DNA from: Candidatus Latescibacterota bacterium
Lineage (GTDB): Bacteria; Latescibacterota; UBA2968; UBA8231
Assembly: GCA_965206595.1 (NCBI GenBank)
Contig: OZ242214.1
Location: 3,072,001-3,136,000 of the forward strand
DNA: 64,000 bases
Reading direction: 5' to 3'
The notes under the pieces were generated by a model. It worked only from the letters and a program-made list of their open reading frames with translations, did not search any database and was not told the origin of the DNA. This document shows, piece after piece, positions 4,415-17,191 of this stretch (its first letter is position 1; every line of letters starts with the position of its first letter). The position numbers and the translations under genes are program-made.

Positions 4415-7400
4415 CTACTGCGGCCCCGCATCGCCGAACCGGGTTCGGATGAACTCCCTGGTGTCGTCGGGTGAAAGCTTCACGGTTCCCGGGCCGCTGC
4501 GCACGAAGAAGTCGCCCCCCTCCTCCTTCTCCACCCCCTTCCACCTGAGGAACACCGGTTCCGGGCTGCGCTGGCAGCTCACCACGCAGACCCCCTTGCT
4601 GTCGACGATCTGAATCTCCGGATCGATGCAGGTCCCGGCGCGGTCGCCCAAACCGTTGCGCACCACCTGGGCGAGATGGCGCATGAACTTGTCGTCGTTG
4701 TCGAGCCGGTCCCGTTCGATCCCGACGACGGCTCCATCGTCTGCCACCCCCAATAGGAGATCCCCTCCCTCGGTATTGAGGAAAGCCGCGATGGTTTTCA
4801 GCGCGGCGTGGGTCACGCGCTTGTCGTCCTTGCGGTCCTCCACCAGGTTCCAGCGCAGCGTGGACTTGAACTCCAGGGTCTTCGACTCACCCCTCTTGAT
4901 CAGCTCTTCGGCGCTGCGGTGGCTGTGGAGGTACTGGTCGAAGAGCAGATCCCTGATCACCTCTCCAAAGGCCCGGTCGTCGGTGATCCGCTTGTAGAGA
5001 TCGAAATTGGAATCGACGATCTCCTGGATCACCTGGCTCACCTTGTGATCGAAGGTCAGCCGCACGTTGTCGCGCGTGTTCACCCGCGCCGCGGCGTCGA
5101 GGGCGGGGTCCCCTTCGAGCTTCTCCATCATCTGCCCGAGAGTGACGCGGTGCTCGGGCCCGAGCTCGAGCCCGAAGCGCTCGTTCAGCTCGGCGATGAT
5201 GCGCGAAAGCGTCTCCATCTCTTCCGGCGCATGTCCGTGCGCCTCCTTGGTGCCGATGGGGTCGAGCACCCCTGCCTTGCGTTCGAGACCGATCTTGCCG
5301 CTGCCGGTCTCCTGAATCCGGAAGGATTCCATGTCGATGTTCTGCTGCACTTCGAGCGGCAGCTCGGCCCGCTCCGGGCGCAACAGGCGAAGCAGGTGCC
5401 TGGCGAAGACGTAGAGCTTCTCCAGGTCGGAATCCGAGAAAGGCAGCACCTGGGACAGAAACGCGTAGAGCCGCACGTAGTCGGTGAGCTGCCCCCGGAA
5501 ATCCTGCCGCTCTTCCTCGTGCAGCTCGTTGAAGCGCTCGACGACCGGATTCAGCAGCGGCTGCAGCTGGTCCTGCCCCGCCTTGCCGCCGAAATAGAGC
5601 CTGGCGAAGCCGTCGACGTCGGCCTGAGCATAGACCGGGAAAGCGGTCAGACGCGTCTGGATTTCGTAGAGCAGGTTGGGATCGGTCTCTTCCGAAAGCA
5701 GGGTGGTCTCGTAGTAGGGCTCGAAGGCGGCCTTGATCCCGTCCGGCTCGTTGGCGAAGTCGAGCACCATGGTGCCCTGCTTTCCTTCCTTTGTGCGGTT
5801 GAGCCGCGACAGGGTTTGCACCGCGTTCACGCCGCCGAGCTTCTTGTCGACGTACATCGTGTGCAGCAGCGGCTGGTCGAACCCGGTCTGGAACTTGTTG
5901 GCGACGATCAGGAAGCGGTAGTCCGGCCCTTCGAAGGTTTTGGCAGTCTGCGCCTCTGAGACCTTGTTCATATTGGCTTCGGTATATGCGGGATCACCGC
6001 CATCCTTGACGGACCCGGAGAAGGCAACCAGCGCCTTGAACGGATTCCCCAGCTCCTCGAGATGCCGGTCCACCGCCAGCTTGTAGCGCACCGCGTGCAG
6101 GCGCGAGCGGGTGACGATCATCGCCTTGGCCCTGCCGCCGATCTGGCTCTGCACCTGCCCGGTGAAGTGCTCGATCACGATGCGCACCTTCTCGTCGATG
6201 GCGTGCGGGTGCAGGTCGACATAGGACTTGAGCAGACATGCGGCTTTCTGCTTGTCGTAGCGCGGATCATCCTCAACCGTCTTCAACAGCCGCCAGTAGG
6301 CCTTGCAGGTGGTGTAGCTCTCCAGGACGTCGAGGATGAACCTCTCCTCGATGGCCTGGCGCATGCTGTAGAGGTGGAACGGCGCGAACGAGCCGTCGGG
6401 TCGCTTCGTTCCGAACAGCTCCAGCGTCTTGGGCTTGGGCGTCGCCGTGAAGGCGAAGGTCGACAGATTGGGCAGCCGCCCGCGCTTTTCCATCTCCGCA
6501 AGGATCGCGTTCTCCAGCTCCTCTTCTGGGGTCTCGGCCCCGGATTCCTCGCTCTCGGCCTCTTCGAGCGAAGCTGGGGCCAGCACCGACTTCAGGCTCT
6601 TCGTGCTCTCCCCCGACTGCGACGAGTGCGCCTCGTCTACGATCAGCGCGAACCGCTTGCCCGGCAGATCGTCGATCTGTCCGGCGATCACCGGGAACTT
6701 CTGCAGCGTGGTGACGATGATGGTCTTGCCCCCCTCGAGGGCATCCCTGAGCTGGCGCGAGGTGGTGTCGATGTTCTCCACCACCCCCAGGGTCTGCTCG
6801 AACTGGCGCATGGTGCTCTGCAGGGCGCGGTCGAGCACGCGGCGGTCGGTGATGACCACGATCGAGTCGAAGACGCGGCGGTCGTCAGCGTCGTGCAGGG
6901 TCGAGAGCTGGTGGGCGAGCCAGGCGATGGTATAGCTCTTGCCGCTCCCGGCCGAGTGCTGGATGAGATACTGCTGCCCACCCCGTTCTCGCGGGCATCG
7001 GCGACGAGCCGGCGCACGCAGTCGAGCTGCTGGTAGCGCGGGAAGATCAGGGATTTCCTGCCGGTCTTGCGGCCGGTCTCGTCCTCTTCTTCGACTTCAT
7101 GGATGAACTGGCGCACCAGGTCGAGGACGCTGTCGCGCGCCCAGGTCTCTTCCCAGAGATAGGAGGTGGCGTACCCGGTCTGCGTGGGCGGCACCGGCGG
7201 GTTGCCGGCGCCTCCGAACTTGCCCCGATTGAAAGGGAGGAAGCGGGTCCCGGCGCCGTCGAGATGGGTGGCGACGTAGACCAGGTCGGCGTCCACGGCG
7301 AAGTGTCCGAGGCAGCGGCCGTATGCCAGCAGCGGCTCGCGGGGATCGCGGTCGGTCCGGTACTGGCGGATCGCGTCCTCGACGGTCTGGCCGCTGAGCG

Positions 7401-7947
7401 GGTTCTTGAGCTCCGCGGTGAACAGGGGGATACCGTTCAGGAACAGCACCAGGTCGAGGCTCTTCTCGTTTTTGAGGCTGTAGCGGACCTGGCGGACAAC
7501 GGCGAAGAAGTTCGCCGCGTGCAGCCGCCGCGTCTCCTCGTTGAGCCCGCTGGCCGGGGCGAAATAGACGAGCCGGAAGCTGCAGCCCATGTCCTTCACC
7601 CCGGAGCGCAGCACGTCGAGGGCGCCGCGTCTCGCGATCTCCGACGACAACCGTTTGAGGAACCGCTCCTGCACCTGGACCCCGTAGTGTTCGGACAGCC
7701 TCTGCCACTGCTTCGGCTGCGTAGCCAGCAGGAAGTCCACGACGTCGCGGGGCAACAGGCACAAGGTTCGGTCGTAGTCCCGGGGCAGGCGCTGGTGATA
7801 GCCGCCGGGCTGCATCCCCCGGGCGCCCAGGGAAGGCGTGGGTTCCCCCGCCAGGGCTTCGCCCCCGGGCAGCTCCCCCTCGACCCGGCGCAGCAAGGCC
7901 GCCTCGATGGCGTCCTCGAAGGCTCGTTCCGAGATCTCGGGATTCAC
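4415..7947 (-). pseudogene. hsdR: Type I restriction enzyme R subunit fused to a C-terminal Schlafen/AlbA_2 domain; 1-nt frameshift at ~6977-6979
   Basis: ORF 6688..7947 has the nuclease motif LDLVLFLNGIPLFTAELKN. The shifted frame gives QYLIQHSAGSGKS (Walker A), then IVDEAHSSQ, FTATPK and KFQTGFDQP. The C-terminus reads ESKTLEFKSTL...IAAFLNTEGGDLLLGVADDG. Confidence 0.9.
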
Positions 7948-9125
7948 ATGCCACCTCCCCGGGTTGTCGCGGCTTCAGGGTCCCGTCTCGGGGTGGACGG
8001 GGCATCCAGCACCTCTAGCACGGCGGGCGCGCAATAAATCCGATTGCGCTTCGCCTCCCCGACCAGGGTGACGATGCCTGCCGCTTCCAGCCGGTCGACG
8101 GCGCGCCGGGCCGTGGTGTAGGCGACCTCCAGATTCTGGGCAAGGCCGCGTACGGACCAGAAGGGATTCTCGACAAACAGCTCCAGCACCTTCTCCGACT
8201 GCCCGGAATGAACCCCGTCGATTTTCTCCAACCAGCCCTGAAACAGGTCGTCGATGCGTTGGATCCGGCCGACTGCGTCTCCTGCCTGGAGTTCCACCCC
8301 GCGCAGGAAGTACGTCAACCACGCCTCCCACTCCCCGCTTTCCGTCACCCCCTGAAGGCGGGCGTAGTACTCCTCGCGCGTCGCTTCAAAGTAAGCGCTC
8401 AGATAGAGAAGGGGTTCCGGCAGGAGTCCGCGGGCGACGAACAACAGCGAGATGAGCAGGCGACCGACGCGCCCATTGCCGTCGATAAACGGATGGATCG
8501 CCTCGAACTGCGAGTGGACGAGCGCGGCGTGCACCAGGGGAGGCAGGGTGCCGTCGTGAAGGAACTGCTCCCACGCCCCCAGGCAGGCCATCAGCTCGCC
8601 GGGCGGAGGGGGAACGTACCTGGCGTCCTCGAGGCCGCTCCCGGGCGGACCGATCCAGTTCTGGGTGCGTCGAAACTCACCCGGGGTAGCCGTGTCGCCC
8701 CGGACCCCCCGCATCAGACGCTCGTGCAGCTCCCGCACCAGACGCAGGGACAGCGGCAACGTGTTCAGGCGCCTTATCCCGTACTGCAGCGCCAGGACGT
8801 AGTTGGCGACCTCGTGCAGATCCGCTGCATTCCGTTCGACCCCTGCCCCAGCCTGCGCTGCAAGCAGTTCGCCCAGGGTGGCCTGCGTGCCTTCGATGCG
8901 GCTGGAAAGCACCGCTTCCCGGTGGAGGAAGGCCCGGATGAAGAGATGCGGATTGGACACCAGTCTGCCTTCCCCGGCGAGCCGGCCTACCGCCTGGTCG
9001 GCGCGGGAGAGCGCGAGGAGGAGGTCTCCATTCCAAGCAATAGGAAGCGGAAGGGGCGCCGGAACGAAGGCGCGGTACCCGCCCGGGCAGTCGATCAGGC
9101 GACCGGGCTGTGGTTTTGCATCCAT
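7944..9125 (-). CDS. Fic family protein (Fic_N + Fic + C-terminal HTH)
   Basis: Canonical HPFIDGNGRVGR and SSRIEG; overlaps the hsdR start (ATGA). Confidence 0.92.
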   Translation of the reverse strand: MDAKPQPGRLIDCPGGYRAFVPAPLPLPIAWNGDLLLALSRADQAVGRLAGEGRLVSNPHLFIRAFLHREAVLSSRIEGTQATLGELLAAQAGAGVERNAADLHEVANYVLALQYGIRRLNTLPLSLRLVRELHERLMRGVRGDTATPGEFRRTQNWIGPPGSGLEDARYVPPPPGELMACLGAWEQFLHDGTLPPLVHAALVHSQFEAIHPFIDGNGRVGRLLISLLFVARGLLPEPLLYLSAYFEATREEYYARLQGVTESGEWEAWLTYFLRGVELQAGDAVGRIQRIDDLFQGWLEKIDGVHSGQSEKVLELFVENPFWSVRGLAQNLEVAYTTARRAVDRLEAAGIVTLVGEAKRNRIYCAPAVLEVLDAPSTPRRDPEAATTRGGGM

Positions 9126-9144
9126 GCCGATGTTACCGCATTCC

Positions 9145-9207
9145 CTGTTTTCGGGTGCGAAAACAGAAACGGGTTTTATTAGCGCAAATTGCGAATCGCG
9201 CTAATAA
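9145..9207. promoter_or_regulatory. Two inverted repeats upstream of fic (candidate operators)
   Basis: CTGTTTTCG-N4-CGAAAACAG (9145-9166) and TTATTAGCGC-N12-GCGCTAATAA (9176-9207). Confidence 0.5.
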
Positions 9208-9420
9208 CCTAACGGCGGAGGGTAAATGAGGGAAATACCGGTGTTTTTTAGTTGACCCGAAGAAGGAGGACGAGTGACCTCACTTCCCGGTACCGTATCA
9301 GTCTGAAAATTCCATCCGCCCCGGAAAGCCGATTCCATCACCCAGGTTTCCTGGCTAAAGGGTGTGCTGTTTCGCCGCCAATAGTCGCTCTTGGTGGGAG
9401 GTTGATCCACCCCCATCCGC

Positions 9421-9439
9421 GTTATACATGTTGTATAAC
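9421..9439. promoter_or_regulatory. Palindromic operator upstream of the RelBE-like pair
   Basis: GTTATACA-TGT-TGTATAAC, followed by RBS AAGGAGGT and ATG at 9465. Confidence 0.6.
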
Positions 9440-9464
9440 ATCCCACACCAAGGAGGTAGGAATC

Positions 9465-9650
9465 ATGTCCACAGCCAATGGCATCCCTCGGGAGAAGGAC
9501 GAAACAATCGAGTTGCAAAAGATACTCGACGATCCTTCCACGGAGTGGGTGTCCTGGAAGGAAGCAGAAGATGAGCTACGAGAGCTCGATAAACAGGAAA
9601 GCCTTGAAAAGGCTGAAGCAAATCCCCCAGCCCACGAGAGGGCGCATTGA
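9465..9650 (+). CDS. Short acidic putative antitoxin
   Basis: Strong RBS; acidic peptide with ..EWVSWKEAEDEL motif; overlaps a RelE-like gene. Confidence 0.55.
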   Translation: MSTANGIPREKDETIELQKILDDPSTEWVSWKEAEDELRELDKQESLEKAEANPPAHERAH

Positions 9651-9821
9651 AGAGGCCATCAGGGCCATTGAGAAAAATCCTCGTGCTGGCGAAGCCTTAC
9701 GAGGGATTGAATTGGATTTCGAAAGATCAGGATTGGCCAGTTCCGGGTTCTCTACGAAGTGAATGAATCTGAGAAGCTGATCCGAATTGTGAAAATAGAA
9801 CCGCGAGGCTCTTCCTACTGA
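9571..9821 (+). pseudogene. RelE/ParE family toxin, frameshifted near 9700-9715
   Basis: MSYESSINRKALKRLKQIPQPTRGRIEEAIRAIEKNPRAGEALRG, then in a shifted frame GFRKIRIGQFRVLYEVNESEKLIRIVKIEPRGSSY*. Confidence 0.75.
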
Positions 9822-10045
9822 TAGTCGTCTTCTTCGCTCACCCTCTTAGGTCAAATTTTTTCCCAAGTACATCTCCTCTGAACTCGGCTCTTTTCGAGAG
9901 ATCGGGTTTATTTTTTTGCCAGTTCGTCAAATTATCCAAACCAAATCACTGACACATATGCTTGCCATTTTCGTTCTGAATTCGTTGATGTTATCTGAAC
10001 AAATTGCAGATTCAGTTGGAAAACGGAGAAGTTTGTAACATTTTG

Positions 10046-11512
10046 TTACGAACTAGAACTTTTGCAAAACTTCTTCGTAACGGCCGGAGTGAACGTGACA
10101 TATGCGGCAGCCTGCCGCACGTCGATCTTGCCGGTTACTGCAGCCGAGATGAGGGCCGTGCGGAGTTCCTTGTGGCAGTCGATGGCCTCGCGGACTTTGG
10201 CGACGAGGGCGTCGATCTTGGCGGTCTCGCGGTCGAGGAAGGCGGCGATGGCGTGTTGTTCCTCTATAGAGGGTAATGCCAATCTGACATTGCCAATTTC
10301 GTTCGTACTTACGTTGAACTGAGCAGTACCCGTTGTATATGAAAGAACTTGCTCGTAGAAAACCGTTGTCTGTAAGGCTCCAACAAGGAATCCGTCTGTG
10401 ATTCGGTCGATCACGGGCCGGAATCTAGCAACGCGTTGGTTCAGTTGCGCAGGGGTGTCACCTTTCCGGACAACAGCAAAGTTACCAAGGCTACCCGTGG
10501 AACCGATGCTTCCAGACAATCCGTAAATTATGTCATCTTCGTTAAGTGCAAACTCGTCTTTGCATTCATGTTCAGGTATTCGAACTACATTTTCAAAGTC
10601 TAATGCTCCCCGGCGGATGTTGTTCATGCGAATTATTGGGACCCCATCGTTCTGGAATGAATCAGAGGAAAAAGCAAACCCCCCTTGGACCCGAGACGCT
10701 TGCTTCAACCGAACAACCTCCCAATGCACAGGTATCGCCCCCAGCCACTCGACACCGGAGTCCTTCATCGGCACATCGGGGTCGAGGCCCTTGGTGACGG
10801 CGCGGTTGATGAGGGCAGTGCGCTTTTCCTGGAGCAGCTCGATCAGCCGCTCCTTCTTTGCCACGAGGGCGTCGATCCTGGCCGTCTCGCGGTCGAGAAA
10901 AACGGCGATGGCGCGTTGTTCCAGTAACTCCGGATAGGCTGCGACTTCATTCAGATAATTCTCACTATCTAAATTTTGTATTCCTGTATTCTGTTTTATA
11001 GAACGTGTATTTATGCGGGCGGAATACATCGCGGCGTGCACGTAGGTCAAGTATCGAGGATCGAAGCCCTCTTGCACGGGCATCTGCGCGATGAAATTTG
11101 AACAGATAGCAAGTTCGCCATAGGTGTTTATTACCACTGCCCCAACGGGTTGATTGTCCCCTCCTCCTGATTTCTCCAAAAGAAGATCGTTACGTCTAAG
11201 GCGTCGTCCACCCAAAATCATTGGGTCCACTGAACGGAGGGTAGGCTGGTTCATTTTGACTACGCCTGCCACCCGATCAAAATCCGCAACCCGGACACAT
11301 GCAACATCATTGATACCGTCAGGATCATCCCCCCACAATCCATTCTGACACTTAGTCACGGTAAATCGCAGTCTCTTCACCTCCCAGTGCTCCGGAACCT
11401 GCCCCAGCCACTCGACACCGGAGTCCTTGGAGGCCGGATAAGGCCTGTATCGTTCCCCCCCCATTCTGGGTGTACCACTGCTCTTCCCAATGTCAGCGGA
11501 TCGTTTAGTCAT
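10046..11512 (-). CDS. hsdS: Type I restriction enzyme specificity subunit
   Basis: Two KDSGVEWLG.[VI]P.HW repeats, two EQ.AIA.FLDRETA.IDALV helices, ALISAAVTGKIDVR, two AT-rich TRDs. Confidence 0.95.
   Translation of the reverse strand: MTKRSADIGKSSGTPRMGGERYRPYPASKDSGVEWLGQVPEHWEVKRLRFTVTKCQNGLWGDDPDGINDVACVRVADFDRVAGVVKMNQPTLRSVDPMILGGRRLRRNDLLLEKSGGGDNQPVGAVVINTYGELAICSNFIAQMPVQEGFDPRYLTYVHAAMYSARINTRSIKQNTGIQNLDSENYLNEVAAYPELLEQRAIAVFLDRETARIDALVAKKERLIELLQEKRTALINRAVTKGLDPDVPMKDSGVEWLGAIPVHWEVVRLKQASRVQGGFAFSSDSFQNDGVPIIRMNNIRRGALDFENVVRIPEHECKDEFALNEDDIIYGLSGSIGSTGSLGNFAVVRKGDTPAQLNQRVARFRPVIDRITDGFLVGALQTTVFYEQVLSYTTGTAQFNVSTNEIGNVRLALPSIEEQHAIAAFLDRETAKIDALVAKVREAIDCHKELRTALISAAVTGKIDVRQAAAYVTFTPAVTKKFCKSSSS
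10739..11428. repeat. hsdS conserved-region direct repeats
   Basis: Identical 27-nt CCCCAGCCACTCGACACCGGAGTCCTT at 10739-10765 and 11402-11428; a second near-identical ~60-nt pair at ~10201-10262 and ~10861-10922. Confidence 0.8.
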
Positions 11513-11542: not shown

Positions 11543-12472
11543 TCATCGTCCAACTTCATTCCACCAAGGCCCACCTGCCGGCCAGGTTCCGGTGAACCCT
11601 GATCCGCGCGCCATCGCATCCCATGGCTCTCTGAGAAACGACAGTAGGCGCTCGCCTACGATACCGAAATCCGATTGCGCCCCCGGAAGCTCGTTCCTGT
11701 CCAGGTAATTACCCCACTGCTCCGCCCGCTCGGCATCCTCATAGAACCGAGGCGTCAGAGCCACCGGAACATCCCGGGAAATCACAGTACGGCGTTGGTC
11801 GAAGGTTGCGCCCACAGCGCGTTCGAGGTTCTCACCCTCGAAGGAAGAGCACTGTGCAAGCGCGTGAAGATCGTAAAAATCTTTGTAGCGACTGTTCCGT
11901 TCGCCGAGCACAACCATCGCGTGGAGCTTCTCGGCCACGACGGCTTCGCGTGGGTAAACACGGATTTGCGGATGAGGAGCGTCGAGCAGTGTCGGGTAAT
12001 CGGCGTTGGTCGGCGGAGGCTGGATGGCATTCCCGAACCCGACATCGATCCGCATCCGTATTCGCGCGCCCGAGATCCTGGCCCAGAAGAACGCTCGGAA
12101 GCCGTCATACTCTTGATGTTCCCGGAAGGGTTCGACCCCGATGTCCCCGCTGTCGAAAACAACTCCATCGTCGGCGGGAGTGTCGCAAATGTCGCGGATG
12201 GTGGAGCGCACCTCGTTTGCCAGGGGGCTTCCGTAGCCAGTGAAATCCAGATCGCGCGTCGGCCGATAGACTGCTTCGCTCCAAAGGCAAAGGAGCATCG
12301 CGCCCTTCAAGACGTAGCGCTCGCGGTGCTGCGATTCTCCAAGGCGGTAGAGGAATCGCTCCGCGGCGTAGCGCTGCAGCAGGAACTGGAAGTCCTCTCC
12401 GGTTGCGCGGCTCCGGTTCATCAACCTTGCGCGAACCGATGCTCCCATGTTTCGGCGTTTCCCGCGCGTCAT
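11543..12472 (-). CDS. abiEii: AbiEii/AbiGii nucleotidyltransferase toxin (type IV TA)
   Basis: LKGAM, RPTRDLDF, EKLHAM, NSRYKDFYD. Confidence 0.9.
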   Translation of the reverse strand: MTRGKRRNMGASVRARLMNRSRATGEDFQFLLQRYAAERFLYRLGESQHRERYVLKGAMLLCLWSEAVYRPTRDLDFTGYGSPLANEVRSTIRDICDTPADDGVVFDSGDIGVEPFREHQEYDGFRAFFWARISGARIRMRIDVGFGNAIQPPPTNADYPTLLDAPHPQIRVYPREAVVAEKLHAMVVLGERNSRYKDFYDLHALAQCSSFEGENLERAVGATFDQRRTVISRDVPVALTPRFYEDAERAEQWGNYLDRNELPGAQSDFGIVGERLLSFLREPWDAMARGSGFTGTWPAGGPWWNEVGR

Positions 12473-13074
12473 AGCGAGAGTGCTTGCAGGTAGGCACGCA
12501 TGACGGTCTGCGCACGGCAGACTTCGGCGGCGCGCACGATCTCATCCACGGTCGCAGCCCGTGATCGCAGGGCGTCGTGCAGTGCCTCGAGCGCGATGTC
12601 GAGACCGAGCTTGTGGCGGTAGCGAAAACAGTCCACCACGGTGCGGGCCGGCGAGGTGATGCGAAACGGCACCCCCTGCGCCGAATGGGAGGCAACGCCG
12701 TAGGTGAGCATCGCACCGGAGAAACGGACGATGCGCACACGCGAGGGTGGGTGCGCCGGCTTGCGGGCCTTGCGGTCGAGGGCGATCCAGACCTCGTGCG
12801 GCGACTGCGTGCCGATTTCGTGGAAGCGAAGCGCCGTCAGCAGGCAGATGACCGCGTTCGGGATGGCCGCGGCTACCATCGCGATCGTCTCGACCTCCGT
12901 GGGTTCGACCTCGGAGAGTCGGTATAGGCCGTTTCCCTGGTTCTCGACGAGTCCCCTGGTAACCAGACCCTGAAGCCTGCGGTGGGAAACCCCGAGCGGC
13001 GCGATGTCCCGAGGCCGGAAGTAGGCTCCGAGGCCGGCTTCCTGGAGTTCGGCAGTGTCCACTATATTCGCCAT
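12469..13074 (-). CDS. abiEi: AbiEi type IV antitoxin / transcriptional regulator
   Basis: N-terminal HTH ending GLYRL; CLLTALRFHEI; TSPARTVVDCF; ATGA overlap with abiEii. Confidence 0.9.
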   Translation of the reverse strand: MANIVDTAELQEAGLGAYFRPRDIAPLGVSHRRLQGLVTRGLVENQGNGLYRLSEVEPTEVETIAMVAAAIPNAVICLLTALRFHEIGTQSPHEVWIALDRKARKPAHPPSRVRIVRFSGAMLTYGVASHSAQGVPFRITSPARTVVDCFRYRHKLGLDIALEALHDALRSRAATVDEIVRAAEVCRAQTVMRAYLQALSL

Positions 13075-13091
13075 ACCTACAGATGATACTG

Positions 13092-13123
13092 AATGTCGGC
13101 ACTTAATCGCAACTGCCGACATT
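13092..13123. promoter_or_regulatory. Inverted repeat upstream of abiEi (likely autoregulatory operator)
   Basis: AATGTCGGCA-N12-TGCCGACATT just upstream of the ATG at 13074; AbiEi proteins are known to bind promoter inverted repeats. Confidence 0.65.
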
Positions 13124-13157: not shown

Positions 13158-13754
13158 TCATAGCCTCCTCAATCGGTTCAGGAGATCCTTGGCATGCGGA
13201 CACGAGGATTCGACGAGTGTTGGATCGATTTGCGCAAGCAATCCGAATGAAGCCTTGCCCTTGGCATAAGGTTTTGGGCATTGGGCGGTGGCCCTGTCCA
13301 GCGCGGCGAGAACCGTCTCCCTGGACAGGTCTTCCAACTTTGGCCATTGCCTGAGCGCGTTCTCCGCAACCAACGGACCGAAGTAGCGTCGCAGTGCATC
13401 ATGGTCCGCCAGAAACCAGGTTTCCATGACCTGAACCATCAGGAAGGCCTGATCGTCGCCGGTCCCTGAAGGTCTATTCCAGCCGTCGCGTTGCTGCAGA
13501 TGCTGCCAAGCCGAGTGGCCCGCTGCGACCGGGTCTTCGCTGTCCACGAGGAGCAGTGGGATGGTACCAGGCTTCTGCCCAGCGGCATCTGTCGCAAAGC
13601 GGTTGAAGGTGTCTTGCCGTGTGCCGCCCCGAACTACTCTCGGCATGCGGCCACGCAGCCCTGCCGCTGTGAAGAAACTGGTCCAGCCCTCGCGGAATTG
13701 CGCGCCAAGCCGCCGATTATCCCCGCCCCCCTCGATGTAAAGCACGGCGGTCAC
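13158..13754 (-). CDS. DUF4276 family (TOPRIM-like) protein
   Basis: LYIEGGGD, LLVDSED, VQVMETWFLAD; GTG start overlapping the ATPase stop. Confidence 0.8.
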   Translation of the reverse strand: MTAVLYIEGGGDNRRLGAQFREGWTSFFTAAGLRGRMPRVVRGGTRQDTFNRFATDAAGQKPGTIPLLLVDSEDPVAAGHSAWQHLQQRDGWNRPSGTGDDQAFLMVQVMETWFLADHDALRRYFGPLVAENALRQWPKLEDLSRETVLAALDRATAQCPKPYAKGKASFGLLAQIDPTLVESSCPHAKDLLNRLRRL

Positions 13755-14968
13755 CAACGATTCCCTCCCAGTTGCCCGGAGCTCCAGAGATTGCCGAGGG
13801 TGTAATCCTTCAGCCACTTTGCCAGGTCCTCCTTGTCGAGCCGTCGCATTTCGGTCCGCCCCTCGTGCTTTTCGCAGATCACGACACTTTCCGGGGTGTC
13901 GGTCAGCGCATCGACCATGACATCCGAATGCGTCGTCACGATCAGTTGACTGCGCTCGGACGCTGAGCGCAGCAGCTCGACCAACGTCGGCAACAGGTCC
14001 GGGTGCAGGCCCAGTTCCGGCTCTTCGATTACGACAAGGGGCGGGGGCTCGGGGTGCAACAGGATGGCGAGCATGCAGAGGTAGCGCAGGGTGCCGTCCG
14101 AAAGGCCAGCGACCGGGATTTCACGGTTGCCACTTTCCTCCAAAAACAGGGTAACGGTACCGCCGACCACCGAGCATTTGATGTCGACGATTCCGTCGTA
14201 GAGCTTCTGCAATGCTGATATGAGCTGCCTCCTGTTCTCACCAGGAAAGTTCGACAGCACGGGCGCCAGGTTCGCCCCTCTCTCATCGAGGTAGTCAGCA
14301 GCGTCGTGAGCGCTCGCCGGCCGACGCAAATTCGCCGAAGGTCCGAACGACCAATCCCGGTAAAGACGAATGGCGTTGTACCGTTGGTTCAAAAACCAAA
14401 GGGCTGGGTAGTCCTTGGGATTGGCGACGGATACCAACGAGACTTTGGGTAAATAATCACTCCTGAAGTGGATACCGTCGTCCTCACGTAAATGCGCCAA
14501 AAGGCTACCTGCGGAGTTCGGGTCAGTTGGATTTGGAGATTTCTCACGCAGAAATGACTCGGTACGAGCCTCTCGAGGGGGCCGGAAATAAACCCAAGCG
14601 GCACGCTTATCCTCGCACTCCCCAACTGGCTGGACCTGCTCGGAAATAACTTCCGGGCGACCGTTCACCTCCCCCAGCGAGAAGAAATGCCGCAACTCGC
14701 CGCCCCATGGATAGTGAAGCATGGCCTCCATGGTCATCGACTCCGGCGGCCTTGGCCCCTTCCATAGCGACTCTCGAAGGCCACCCCTGGGTGAGAGGGG
14801 CTCGAAGACATCTCGGGGGATCGCCTTGAGCAACGAAATCGCCTCGATGAAGTTCGACTTCCCCGAACCGTTCGGGCCGATCAGGACGTTCAGCGGTTCC
14901 ATGGGCAAGTCGATCCCGTCGGGTCCGAACGACAGAAAGCCTGCGACTTTCAATCTGTGAATCAGCAT
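13751..14968 (-). CDS. ABC-type (AAA_21) ATPase
   Basis: GPNGSGKSN, LSDGT signature, VVIEEPELGLHP, TTHS. Confidence 0.9.
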   Translation of the reverse strand: MLIHRLKVAGFLSFGPDGIDLPMEPLNVLIGPNGSGKSNFIEAISLLKAIPRDVFEPLSPRGGLRESLWKGPRPPESMTMEAMLHYPWGGELRHFFSLGEVNGRPEVISEQVQPVGECEDKRAAWVYFRPPREARTESFLREKSPNPTDPNSAGSLLAHLREDDGIHFRSDYLPKVSLVSVANPKDYPALWFLNQRYNAIRLYRDWSFGPSANLRRPASAHDAADYLDERGANLAPVLSNFPGENRRQLISALQKLYDGIVDIKCSVVGGTVTLFLEESGNREIPVAGLSDGTLRYLCMLAILLHPEPPPLVVIEEPELGLHPDLLPTLVELLRSASERSQLIVTTHSDVMVDALTDTPESVVICEKHEGRTEMRRLDKEDLAKWLKDYTLGNLWSSGQLGGNRW

Positions 14969-14998: not shown

Positions 14999-17146
14999 TT
15001 ATCCGGCCGACACGCCCTTCAGCATCTCCAGGATGTCCTTCTCGATAACCTGAATGTCCGCCTCGATCTCCGCGAGCGGCCGTGGCGGCTTGTACTGATA
15101 GAAGTAGCGGTTGAAGTTGATCTCGTAGCCGACCATGCCAACCAGGCCGTCTCTTGGGTCCCGCTTCGACGTGTCGATCCAGGCATCCGGCACATGCGGC
15201 TCGACCTCGCGCTCGAAGAAAGCGCGGACGCTTTCCGGCACCCCATCCTCTCCGGCGGGATCCTCTCCATCGGTCAGGGGCACACGCTCGGTATCACGCA
15301 GCTCCGGGTCGGGTTCAAGAGCGCCGTCCTTGCCGCGGCAGATTGCCGCGGTTTCGTCCCGCTCTGAAAGGGCATCGAGTATCGCTGTTTTGAGCGGAGC
15401 CGGAAGCTTCATGCCGGCTTTCGCGGCCGCTTTGGCAAGCTCCGCATGGAACGCCTCTCGGTCCTTGCGGAGGGTGTCGGGCAGGGTCTGGAGCATGGCC
15501 AGAACGGCGTCCTGCAGGGCGCGGCCTTCCTCCTCTTCCCTGGCGCCGGCCTCCCCGCGCTTCTTGGATCTGGCCAGGTTCTGGAAGCCCTTCTGCTCGC
15601 CGAGGCGGGCGATCCGTTCGGCGCTCGCCTGGAAATTGAGCCGCAGCGGCCGTTCGACGGTGATCTTCCGGTACCCGAACTGCGCCGCCGAGAAGACGCG
15701 GCTGACGACGGTCTCTTCCTCTTCTCCGTCCTTTGAGAGTTTCCGGGTCTCGCCGTCTCGGAAACCGGCGAGGAGGTCGAGCACATCGGCCGCGTTTTCC
15801 GGGGGTATCTGGCGCCGCTTGTCGCCGAGGCTCCGGCGCATCGGCGCCCAGAACCCGGTGGCGTCGATGAGTTGCACCTTACCCCTGCGTGCCGCGGCCT
15901 TGCGGTTGCTCAGCAGCCACACGTAGGTGGCGATGCCGGTGTTGTAGAAAAGTTGCTCCGGCAGCGCGATCAGCGCCTCCAGCAGGTCGTTCTCGAGGAT
16001 GTGGCGGCGGATCTCGCTCTCACCGCTGCCGGCGTCGCCGGTGAACAGGGGCGAGCCGTTCATGATGATGGCGATGCGGGCGCCCCCGTCGTCCGCTGCC
16101 CTGGCATGGGCGAGCATGTGCACCAGGAACAGGGTCTGGCCGTCGCTTATGCGCGGCAGCCCGGGGCCGAAACGGCCGGACGCCCCCCGCTCGTGCTCGG
16201 CCTCGACCGCAGCCTTGTCCCGCTTCCAGTCCTTGCCGTAGGGGGGATTGGCGATCAGGTAGTCGAAGGTCCGGCCGGCGTGGCGGTCGTTGGAGAGGGT
16301 GCTTCCGAAAGCCACTTTCTCCGCGTCGCGGCCCGACGGGTCCTTCATGAAGATGTCGGACTTGGAGACCGCCCAGGTCTCCGGGTTCACTTCCTGGCCG
16401 AAGAGATGGATCTCCGCCTGCGCGTTGATGGCGGGGCGAACCAGTTGGCCGTTGCTGCTCATGCCGCCGGTGATGTGCTCCTTGGCGATCATCAGCATGC
16501 CGCCCGAACCGCAGCAGGGATCGTAGACCGAGCGCACCACTCCGGGGCCGGCGATCTCCTTTTCGTCGCCGGAAAGCATGAGGTCCACCATCAGATGGAC
16601 GACGTCGCGGGGCGTGAAGTGCTCGCCGGGGTTTTCGTCCAGGGCCTCGTTGAAGCGGCGGATCAGCTCCTCGAAGATCGTCCCCATGACCGGGTTGTCG
16701 ATCGCGTCCGGATGCAGATCGACGCTCCCGAACCGCTCCAGCACCTGGAACAGCAGCCCTGCCTCGTCGAGCTTGCTTATCGTGTTGTCGAAATCGAACC
16801 GCTCCAGCACCTCGCGCATGTTTCCGCTGAAACCGGCGATGTAGTTCCTGAGGTTGGCGGCGAGGTTCGGCGCGTCGGCGAGGAGCTTGTCGAAGTCGTA
16901 GCGGGAGGTGTTGTAGAAACTGAAGCCGGATGTTCCACAGAGCTGGTCGTTGAGGTCTTCGAGGCCCCGCTCGGACAGCTCGGCCTGCCGTTGCAGCACC
17001 TTCTCCTTGGTCGGTGCGAGCACGCAGTCGAGACGGCGCAGCACGGTCAGCGGCAGGATGACATCCTGGTACTTGCCGCGCTTGAAGCTGTCGCGGATCA
17101 GGTCCGCGACCCCCCAGAGAAAGCTGACGATTTCGCTGTGGTTCAT
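14999..17146 (-). CDS. hsdM: Type I restriction-modification N6-adenine methyltransferase
   Basis: GEHFTPRDVV, YDPCCGSGGM (motif I), ANPPYG (motif IV), FYNTGI. Confidence 0.96.
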   Translation of the reverse strand: MNHSEIVSFLWGVADLIRDSFKRGKYQDVILPLTVLRRLDCVLAPTKEKVLQRQAELSERGLEDLNDQLCGTSGFSFYNTSRYDFDKLLADAPNLAANLRNYIAGFSGNMREVLERFDFDNTISKLDEAGLLFQVLERFGSVDLHPDAIDNPVMGTIFEELIRRFNEALDENPGEHFTPRDVVHLMVDLMLSGDEKEIAGPGVVRSVYDPCCGSGGMLMIAKEHITGGMSSNGQLVRPAINAQAEIHLFGQEVNPETWAVSKSDIFMKDPSGRDAEKVAFGSTLSNDRHAGRTFDYLIANPPYGKDWKRDKAAVEAEHERGASGRFGPGLPRISDGQTLFLVHMLAHARAADDGGARIAIIMNGSPLFTGDAGSGESEIRRHILENDLLEALIALPEQLFYNTGIATYVWLLSNRKAAARRGKVQLIDATGFWAPMRRSLGDKRRQIPPENAADVLDLLAGFRDGETRKLSKDGEEEETVVSRVFSAAQFGYRKITVERPLRLNFQASAERIARLGEQKGFQNLARSKKRGEAGAREEEEGRALQDAVLAMLQTLPDTLRKDREAFHAELAKAAAKAGMKLPAPLKTAILDALSERDETAAICRGKDGALEPDPELRDTERVPLTDGEDPAGEDGVPESVRAFFEREVEPHVPDAWIDTSKRDPRDGLVGMVGYEINFNRYFYQYKPPRPLAEIEADIQVIEKDILEMLKGVSAG

Positions 17147-17191
17147 AGGAACCTTCCAAGTACCGGAAATTACCAATTAGGTCAGAGTTAT

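Follow-up and report, generated by a model that had tools for sequence, protein, structure and literature searches.

In a 64,000-nt stretch of a Candidatus Latescibacterota genome (contig OZ242214.1 of assembly GCA_965206595.1, positions 3,072,001 to 3,136,000 of the forward strand; hereafter the window), the restriction subunit gene hsdR of a type I restriction-modification operon encodes a Schlafen/AlbA_2 domain behind the normal C-terminus of HsdR. We propose that HsdR, a motor and DNA nuclease, has here acquired a single-lobe Schlafen/AlbA_2 tail that is likely an RNase tied to the state of the R2M2S1 complex, a reading to which we give a probability of roughly 0.55. The assignment of the tail to the Schlafen/AlbA_2 domains is secure. 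By analogy with characterised relatives it is most likely an RNase, probably a tRNase, and from the same analogies we infer its RNA substrate, its coupling to the complex and its trigger.

A Schlafen/AlbA_2 domain behind the HsdR C-terminus

The 814-aa minus-strand open reading frame (ORF) at 4415-6859 reads ...RAFGEVIRDLLFDQYL up to L644 (nt 4928-4930), ending the HsdR part with LFDQYL, and continues for 170 more residues to a stop codon at 4415-4417. A preliminary description, made from the letters of the window and its translated ORFs, had placed an extension of about 170 residues with the segments ESKTLEFK, IAAFLNTEGG and LLLGVADDG after an apparent normal HsdR end; we find all of this exactly, and its coordinates of 4415-4930 are exact as well. 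ESKTLEFK spans E658 to K665, and LLLGVADDG contains D707.

Residues 658-795 align to positions 1-117 of the 118-position profile of the Pfam family SLFN_AlbA_2 (PF04326), at 65.6 bits (E 7.7e-18) for the 814-aa ORF and 69.5 bits (E 4.8e-19) for its last 181 residues. Since the cut-off of this family is 25.3 bits, the match lies far beyond chance. A sequence search of the PDB with the tail returned ten chains at E≤1, eight of them Schlafens and two designed proteins; the matches include SLFN13 (5yd0, E 0.0012), SLFN12, SLFN5 and SLFN11. In these alignments ESKTLEFK pairs with ESQSIEFK of SLFN11 (7fex), and GVADDG with GVDDES of SLFN13. The catalytic set E658-x4-E663-x-K665 plus D707 is intact in the tail, which bears out the active site of E-x4-E-x-K and a downstream Asp that had been recognised in the preliminary description. 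By residue counting, we take D707 to correspond to the catalytic D248 of SLFN13.

An AlphaFold2 model of the tail, built from a 46-row alignment (A1), reached a predicted local distance difference test score (pLDDT) of 91.1 and a predicted template modelling score (pTM) of 0.88. Foldseek searches of the PDB with this model gave 27 matches at E≤0.001, and all those listed are AlbA_2, Schlafen or SAMD9 structures, among them DIP2311 (3lmm), SLFN13, 2kyy, the SAMD9 tRNase domain (9o0d), the SAMD9 DNA-binding domain, and SLFN11, SLFN14, SLFN12 and SLFN5. The tail is thus modelled with a Schlafen/SAMD9 fold, and profile search and model agree on the fusion of a type I HsdR to a Schlafen/AlbA_2 domain that had been suggested from the letters. 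No PrrC-type family was found in the tail by Pfam, NCBIfam and PADLOC scans. A homodimer prediction of the 175-aa tail, run without controls, scored 0.00, below the mark, and speaks neither for nor against pairing.

The protein in front of the tail carries all hallmarks of HsdR (Pfam; PADLOC REase_I), split over two frames: ORF 6688-7947 encodes the HSDR_N nuclease of the PD-(D/E)xK type, and ORF 4415-6859 a superfamily 2 (SF2) motor (SWI2_SNF2/ResIII), a T1R_D3-like domain 3 and a helical region, followed by SLFN_AlbA_2. Both hsdM and hsdS share the minus-strand operon with hsdR, making it a type I restriction-modification operon by Pfam and PADLOC. An intact homologue, P0002, stays under the cut-off of the NCBIfam model TIGR00348 (198.7 vs 284.55 bits) and is still recognised by it (E 1.7e-58); judged by sequence, proteins of the P0002 type are a divergent HsdR subfamily. 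As a side observation, the PADLOC type I methyltransferase model PDLC03023 weakly matches residues 578-714 of ORF 4415-6859 (E 2.9e-4), which take in the end of the helical region and, of the Schlafen tail, the first half. The match suggests an AlbA_2-like segment in some of the HsdM proteins from which PDLC03023 was seeded.

Of 6125 candidates from a large protein collection, 2192 gave a match at E≤1e-3. Every one of the top 120 among these hits shows 80% identity or more across the last 255 residues; 77 of them reach a length of 1100 aa or more (about 1175 aa) and contain the domains HSDR_N, SWI2_SNF2, T1R_D3 and AlbA_2. Some members are named 'RNA-binding domain-containing protein' or 'putative DNA binding domain-containing protein' at NCBI. 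Of the 120 best hits, 117 could be anchored (three had no anchor); all of these have the motif E-x4-E-x-K, and an Asp occupies the D707 position in 116 of them. In alignment A1, which takes in relatives at 38-50% identity, the corresponding residues E19, E24, K26 and D68 are conserved at 90% or more. Among 33 tail-bearing full-length HsdRs, mean pairwise identity is 77% for the tail, compared to 80% for the motor, 74% for the nuclease and 72% for the helical region. The tail is under purifying selection and about as conserved as the ATPase motor.

Conservation analysis of the HsdR part showed that all 54 rows retain PD-ExK, QxxxY, DEAH and motif VI, and that the D...ELK and Q..Y motifs of the nuclease region are conserved across the family. 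The Walker A lysine is kept in 53 of the 54 rows, the exception reading GSGET. Because the family retains every HsdR motif, the Schlafen domain is a second effector that has been added on rather than substituted.

In the alignment of related loci the catalytic motif is present in every in-frame row except L025, from a Nitrospiraceae metagenome-assembled genome (positions 10286-10351). Here, both Glu residues are changed to Ala and the Lys to Thr by four nucleotide changes (GCC...GCG.ACG vs GAG...GAG.AAG in its neighbours L028 and L073), and the rest of the domain is conserved. By its sequence L025 would be a natural catalytic knock-out of the HsdR-Schlafen fusion. Such a targeted loss suggests that the motif residues act together and carry a cost, and it fits an active site whose activity can be costly.

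Modularity and distribution of the tail

We scanned one genome per species for related loci and obtained 79, of which 53 have the tail and 26 (L061-L072, L074-L087) do not. With the last 255 residues as query, in which LFDQYL ends at residue 85, the tail-less loci match only query residues 1 to 85-96, and their frame stops 0-11 residues past the end of the match. These 26 loci encode the same HsdR subfamily stopping at about LFDQYL, in line with the apparent normal HsdR end of the preliminary description. No AlbA_2-like sequence was found within 10 kb of hsdR in any of the 26; over this range they show no split form with a separate AlbA_2 gene beside a tail-less hsdR.

A maximum-likelihood tree of the HsdR core was computed without the tail columns from 54 rows, 34 with and 20 without the tail, leaving out open frames below 1000 aa. 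This tree needs at least four gains or losses of the tail, all four forced by well-supported branches. The tail-less genes comprise one Chloroflexota clade of 16 and three further lineages nested among tail-bearing ones, namely L063/L069 beside L014 (Latescibacterota), L062 and L061. Thus, the tail is an optional, modular add-on to a complete restriction subunit.

The 53 tail-bearing loci span at least 12 phylum-level labels: Latescibacterota, Binatia, Thermodesulfobacteriota, Acidobacteriota, several Pseudomonadota, Spirochaetia, Gemmatimonadota, Nitrospiraceae, Chloroflexota, Planctomycetota, Eisenbacteria and Rhodothermales. One locus comes from a cultured isolate, Pelomicrobium sp. G1. The preliminary description had allowed for a fusion unique to this assembly, which these 53 loci contradict. 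As the core tree departs from the phyla, the operon moves horizontally. Within the phylum of the window, 19 of 168 species genomes match at E≤1e-10; eleven of these have the tail at 78-100% identity (eight over the whole query, three partially), three are tail-less, and the rest are other AlbA_2 proteins. The genome of the window itself (G000, 7.05 Mb in one contig) contains 16 separate SLFN_AlbA_2 matches that exceed the Pfam cut-off and lie in open frames of 214-893 aa, so that its collection of Schlafen-domain proteins is unusually large.

Proposed function and alternative explanations

Restriction-modification and abortive infection are usually treated as separate defence layers, and the long-standing textbook example of a tRNase wired to a type I enzyme is PrrC. 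In the HsdR-Schlafen fusion, foreign DNA would be sensed by the type I complex, and the Schlafen tail would form a second defence layer that shuts down translation, with an activity that depends on the state of the R2M2S1 complex. Two HsdR tails might meet, for instance on stalling or collision of translocating complexes, and would then form the active nuclease. Such stalling or collision is also what triggers DNA cleavage by type I enzymes. Because single-lobe prokaryotic Schlafens must pair or oligomerise for activity, pairing of two tails is a plausible switch. In its most specific form, the model has stalling or collision pair the tails into a tRNase, so that one polypeptide couples restriction to abortive infection, the complex senses unmodified DNA or its own blockade, and the fusion is a prokaryotic counterpart of SLFN11; this we regard as tentative.

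The described prokaryotic Schlafens offer parallels for such a coupling. The text of Taboada et al. (Nat Microbiol 2026, PMC13056530) presents them as anti-phage tRNases fused to sensors and reports that when the SLFN11 helicase binds single-stranded DNA (ssDNA), this activates its tRNase. A CRISPR-associated Schlafen is turned on by filament formation driven by cyclic tetra-adenylate (cA4), as described in the text of PMC13462974, according to which more than half of the Schlafen homologues associated with defence have links to restriction-modification and other nucleases; its authors speculate that such Schlafens sense structures made by DNA cleavage. For SLFN-pAgo, dimerisation or tetramerisation is described as rebuilding a two-lobe nuclease of the mammalian type, and target DNA recognition as releasing its activity (text of bioRxiv 10.64898/2026.05.29.728809).

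Several points weigh against our proposal. The whole family is 70-95% identical, so that motif conservation partly reflects recent shared ancestry. The tail is dispensable, as it was lost at least three times while HsdR stayed intact. A tRNA, other RNA or DNA substrate of the tail is extrapolated entirely from relatives less than 25% identical, and for every member of the family the proposed function is a reading of sequence and predicted structure. PADLOC and NCBIfam hold no model for the tail alone, and we count the gap in PADLOC among these points. In addition, the open frame is below 700 aa in 13 of the 53 loci with a tail, despite at least 3 kb of upstream DNA; these short-frame loci include L009, L024, L027, L033, L039, L049, L052, L053, L056 and L058-L060, with L016 (850 aa, at a contig end) excluded. 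Such short frames could stem from indel errors of long reads or from frequent decay.

Finally, the window copy of hsdR is itself frameshifted, being split into its two ORFs by the absence of one G at about 6979. Further upstream, the second frame stays open through QQYLIQHSAGSGKS and reads ...GGQQYLIQHSAGSGKS. P0002, the intact homologue of 1175 aa with 95% identity across the last 255 residues, reads ...ENGVGQQYLIQHSAGSGKS..., which shows that one base after 'ggggtggg' is missing from the window; at precisely window coordinate 6979, the same-genus locus L009 carries an additional G. The frame problem implied by the preliminary description, which spoke of 'frame-repaired' genes, is thereby located. 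If the frameshift is real, this copy yields no full-length HsdR, since the downstream frame has its first start codon (6859) only past the Walker A motif. The copy is either inactive, a pseudogene, or mis-assembled. Phase variation at the G run was rejected, as a run of three to four G is too short.

There is close to an even chance, on the lower side, that in this genome the feature is a decaying pseudogene, with the restriction subunit inactivated and methylation kept; this applies to the window copy and not to the family. Besides the base missing relative to P0002 and L009 and the late start codon, a 99-nt contig of sequencing run X19 (depth about 4) spans 6934-7032 without any difference or gap. 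However, the reads checked at this site are fragmented contigs from complex metagenomes, and X19 may be the source sample and would then not be independent. Moreover, the loss of a G from a G run is an error typical of long-read assembly, the same gene carries three other indel sites in L009, and the seven other genes of the operon are intact.

A different control of the tail is conceivable by analogy to PrrC, namely that the working complex would hold it inactive and that anti-restriction proteins like Ocr, ArdA or Stp would release it for abortive infection. In EcoR124I-type enzymes the C-terminal helical region takes part in assembly with the methyltransferase, and the tail follows this region of HsdR. 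The operon carries other modules of the abortive-infection type (AbiE, SoFic, HEC-01), and PrrC, according to the text of a review (PMC12707154), is encoded within a type IC locus and becomes active on inhibition of EcoPrrI by T4 Stp. Nevertheless, we consider such a guard unlikely: the tail has no homology to PrrC or RloC, and the three characterised prokaryotic Schlafens, as their texts describe them, respond to the invader that is sensed, be it a phage protein, cA4 or target DNA. Although the sequence data do not separate a blocked-complex trigger from activation by restriction itself, the analogy to these three systems leads us to favour a complex engaged with unmodified DNA over an inhibited one.

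It is more doubtful still that the AlbA_2 tail is a non-catalytic accessory that only helps HsdR to hold DNA or RNA. The NCBI names of some members point in this direction, the Foldseek matches include the DNA-bound SAMD9 DNA-binding domain (7ksp) and the nuclease-poor SLFN5, and L025 retains the domain with its motif destroyed. Pure binding, however, would not require an acidic triad, and the near-invariance of E, E, K and D among the anchored hits, extending to relatives at 38-50% identity, speaks for catalysis. Least probable is an auxiliary nuclease on the DNA track that cuts nascent RNA, R-loops or ssDNA met by the motor and so aids restriction: fusions of the same AlbA_2 clade to RNase HII (P0213) and PLD-like domains (P0186), as well as the LexA-like Peptidase_S24 behind the tail of P0194 with its hint at an ssDNA or DNA-damage link, would suit it, whereas the Schlafen nucleases characterised in the texts cited here all cut tRNA or rRNA.

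Relation to known systems and the surrounding operon

Mammalian SLFN11, SLFN13 and SLFN14 likewise combine a Schlafen nuclease and a nucleic-acid motor or helicase in one chain, and their catalytic E, E and D align with those of the tail. They differ in that their two-lobe nuclease lies N-terminal to a superfamily 1 helicase, with less than 25% identity to the tail, whereas the one-lobe HsdR tail is placed C-terminally, behind an SF2 translocase that carries a PD-ExK DNase. PrrC has an ABC-ATPase-like N-terminal domain. It is a separate protein of unrelated fold that associates non-covalently, in contrast to the covalently attached Schlafen domain of HsdR; the likeness is one of function only. 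In the text of the review PMC12707154, PrrC is a tRNase activated on inhibition of its type I partner, and PrrC and RloC are tRNA-directed suicide nucleases physically and genetically tied to a type I enzyme, as proposed here.

The pSlfn effectors of PMC13056530 share with the HsdR tail the Pfam domain, the motif E-x4-(E/D)-x-K, the fusion to another module and the location in defence islands, and pSlfn7 (DUF262/GmrSD_N plus pSlfn) also joins a restriction-type module to a C-terminal Schlafen. As described there, however, none of the 55 architectures is a full HsdR, and the tested systems use Ig-like or other sensors and not a DNA translocase. A class combining PDDEXK, helicase and pSlfn was not found among pSlfn1-55; nearest to it is pSlfn15 ('P-loop_NTPase.pSlfn') with 17 members, 13 of them listed at about 340-690 aa. 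The lone trace in Supplementary Table 2 of that paper is one 517-aa fragment, 'T1R_D3-like.SLFN_AlbA_2'. 'HsdR' occurs 0 times in its main text, with supplementary files 11, 13-20 and 22-26 lying outside this search.

Weickert, Liu & Strecker (Nat Commun 2026, PMC13462974) describe Schlafens fused or adjacent to restriction-modification subunits, as here, and SLFN-GHKL fused to HsdS (Kuzmenko et al., bioRxiv 2026) likewise joins a Schlafen to such a subunit. The former text, figures aside, deals with methyltransferase fusions and separate ATPase-Schlafen genes beside restriction-modification genes and has no HsdR among its highlighted members. A supplementary table of the same paper lists GIW53030.1 (1192 aa, nearest system RM_Type_I), whose AlbA domain clearly belongs to the HsdR-Schlafen family; this protein goes unmentioned in the text and among the highlighted members, figures aside. 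Literature searches on Schlafen or AlbA_2 with HsdR or type I restriction, again figures aside, found no description of an HsdR-Schlafen fusion, and the text of the 2025 restriction-modification review PMC12707154 mentions Schlafen 0 times. The preliminary description had called this an undescribed system. That stands in so far as no text on the HsdR fusion was found, and has to be narrowed because Schlafen effectors and their links to restriction-modification are published, fusions to methyltransferase, HsdS-like and GmrSD-like modules being in print as far as these sources go, and because GIW53030.1 is already tabulated.

If our reading is true, a widespread and conserved HsdR with a built-in Schlafen nuclease would have the wiring to a tRNase hard-coded into the restriction motor. 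The system would be tractable, being a single operon for which tail-less and catalytically dead variants found in nature can serve as controls, and it bears on how a DNA translocase controls a Schlafen RNase, also for human SLFN11. Should the tail act on DNA or hybrids instead, this would be a new accessory activity for type I enzymes.

Related Schlafen domains occur on other proteins as well. Searching 1.84 billion cluster representatives with the tail gave 6364 hits, 222 of them at E≤1e-30. Its nearest relatives outside HsdR are proteins of about 420 aa with a C-terminal AlbA_2 domain at 45-50% identity (P0176, P0184 and about 45 similar representatives). Their N-terminal domain is helical, has no Pfam match, and in the model resembles the Atp12 chaperone fold. 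They were considered as HsdS fusions of the published class TRD.TRD.pSlfn (TRD, target recognition domain), which was rejected since no Methylase_S match appears even at E 10 and the N-terminal domain is helical and Atp12-like. They probably correspond to the published class 'ATP12-like.pSlfn', which is rare in print, though many clusters were found here.

More distant HsdR-AlbA_2-Peptidase_S24 proteins were seen in P0194 and P0154; in P0194 (1329 aa) a LexA-like domain follows the Schlafen domain, which hints at RecA- or ssDNA-dependent self-cleavage as a regulator. Other AlbA_2 fusions join the domain to RNase HII (P0213), PLD-like (P0186) or TPR (P0193) modules. Two other genomes of the same phylum encode GmrSD_N (DUF262)-AlbA_2 proteins of 1047 and 749 aa (L088:3772-6915 on the minus strand, L089:607-2856 on the plus strand), whose AlbA_2 domains are 39-41% identical to the HsdR tail. 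Found on such varied proteins, this Schlafen clade is a portable C-terminal module, often on nucleic-acid enzymes.

The features of the window operon are compiled in the table. The order hsdM - AbiEi - AbiEii - (HEC-01A/B) - hsdS - (SoFic) - hsdR is shared by most of the related loci L009-L087, across many phyla and both with and without the Schlafen tail. As this order recurs in most related loci, the AbiE pair between hsdM and hsdS is a conserved trait of this type I subfamily.

Table. Features of the type I operon and of hsdR, in window coordinates.
Feature	Position (nt)	Strand	Remarks
HsdR C-terminal extension: 13-residue linker and Schlafen/AlbA_2 domain	4418..4927	-	aa 645-814 of the 814-aa ORF; Pfam match nt 4475-4888
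E658-S-K-T-L-E663-F-K665, E-x4-E-x-K catalytic motif of Schlafen nucleases	4865..4888	-
D707 in GVADDG	4739..4741	-	aligned with second Asp of GVDD in SLFN13 (5yd0)
HsdR motor (SF2 ATPase), T1R_D3-like and helical regions	4928..6978	-	frame of ORF 4415-6859; SWI2_SNF2, T1R_D3-like, ResIII
Frameshift site, one G of G run missing relative to intact relatives	6977..6982	-	...ENGVG/QQYLIQ...
HsdR N-terminal PD-(D/E)xK nuclease region HSDR_N	6979..7947	-	frame of ORF 6688-7947; PF04313, E 1.3e-16
hsdR as a whole, two frames	7947-4415	-
Fic/DOC protein (PADLOC SoFic), between hsdS and hsdR	7944..9125	-	Fic_N, Fic; SoFic E 7.2e-115
hsdS specificity subunit	10046..11512	-	Methylase_S, E 1.7e-17
AbiEii toxin	11543-12472	-	Pfam; embedded in operon
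AbiEi antitoxin	12469-13122	-	Pfam; embedded in operon
HEC-01B/DUF4276	13158-13817	-	PADLOC
HEC-01A AAA_21 ATPase	13751-14968	-	PADLOC
hsdM methyltransferase	14999..17176	-	MTase_I E 6.7e-262 (PADLOC); HsdM_N, N6_Mtase

Between hsdS and the Fic gene of the window lies a gap of about 920 bp (9126-10045) containing ORFs of 105, 132 and 94 aa without a Pfam family. A gap of similar size is present at the same place in L009.

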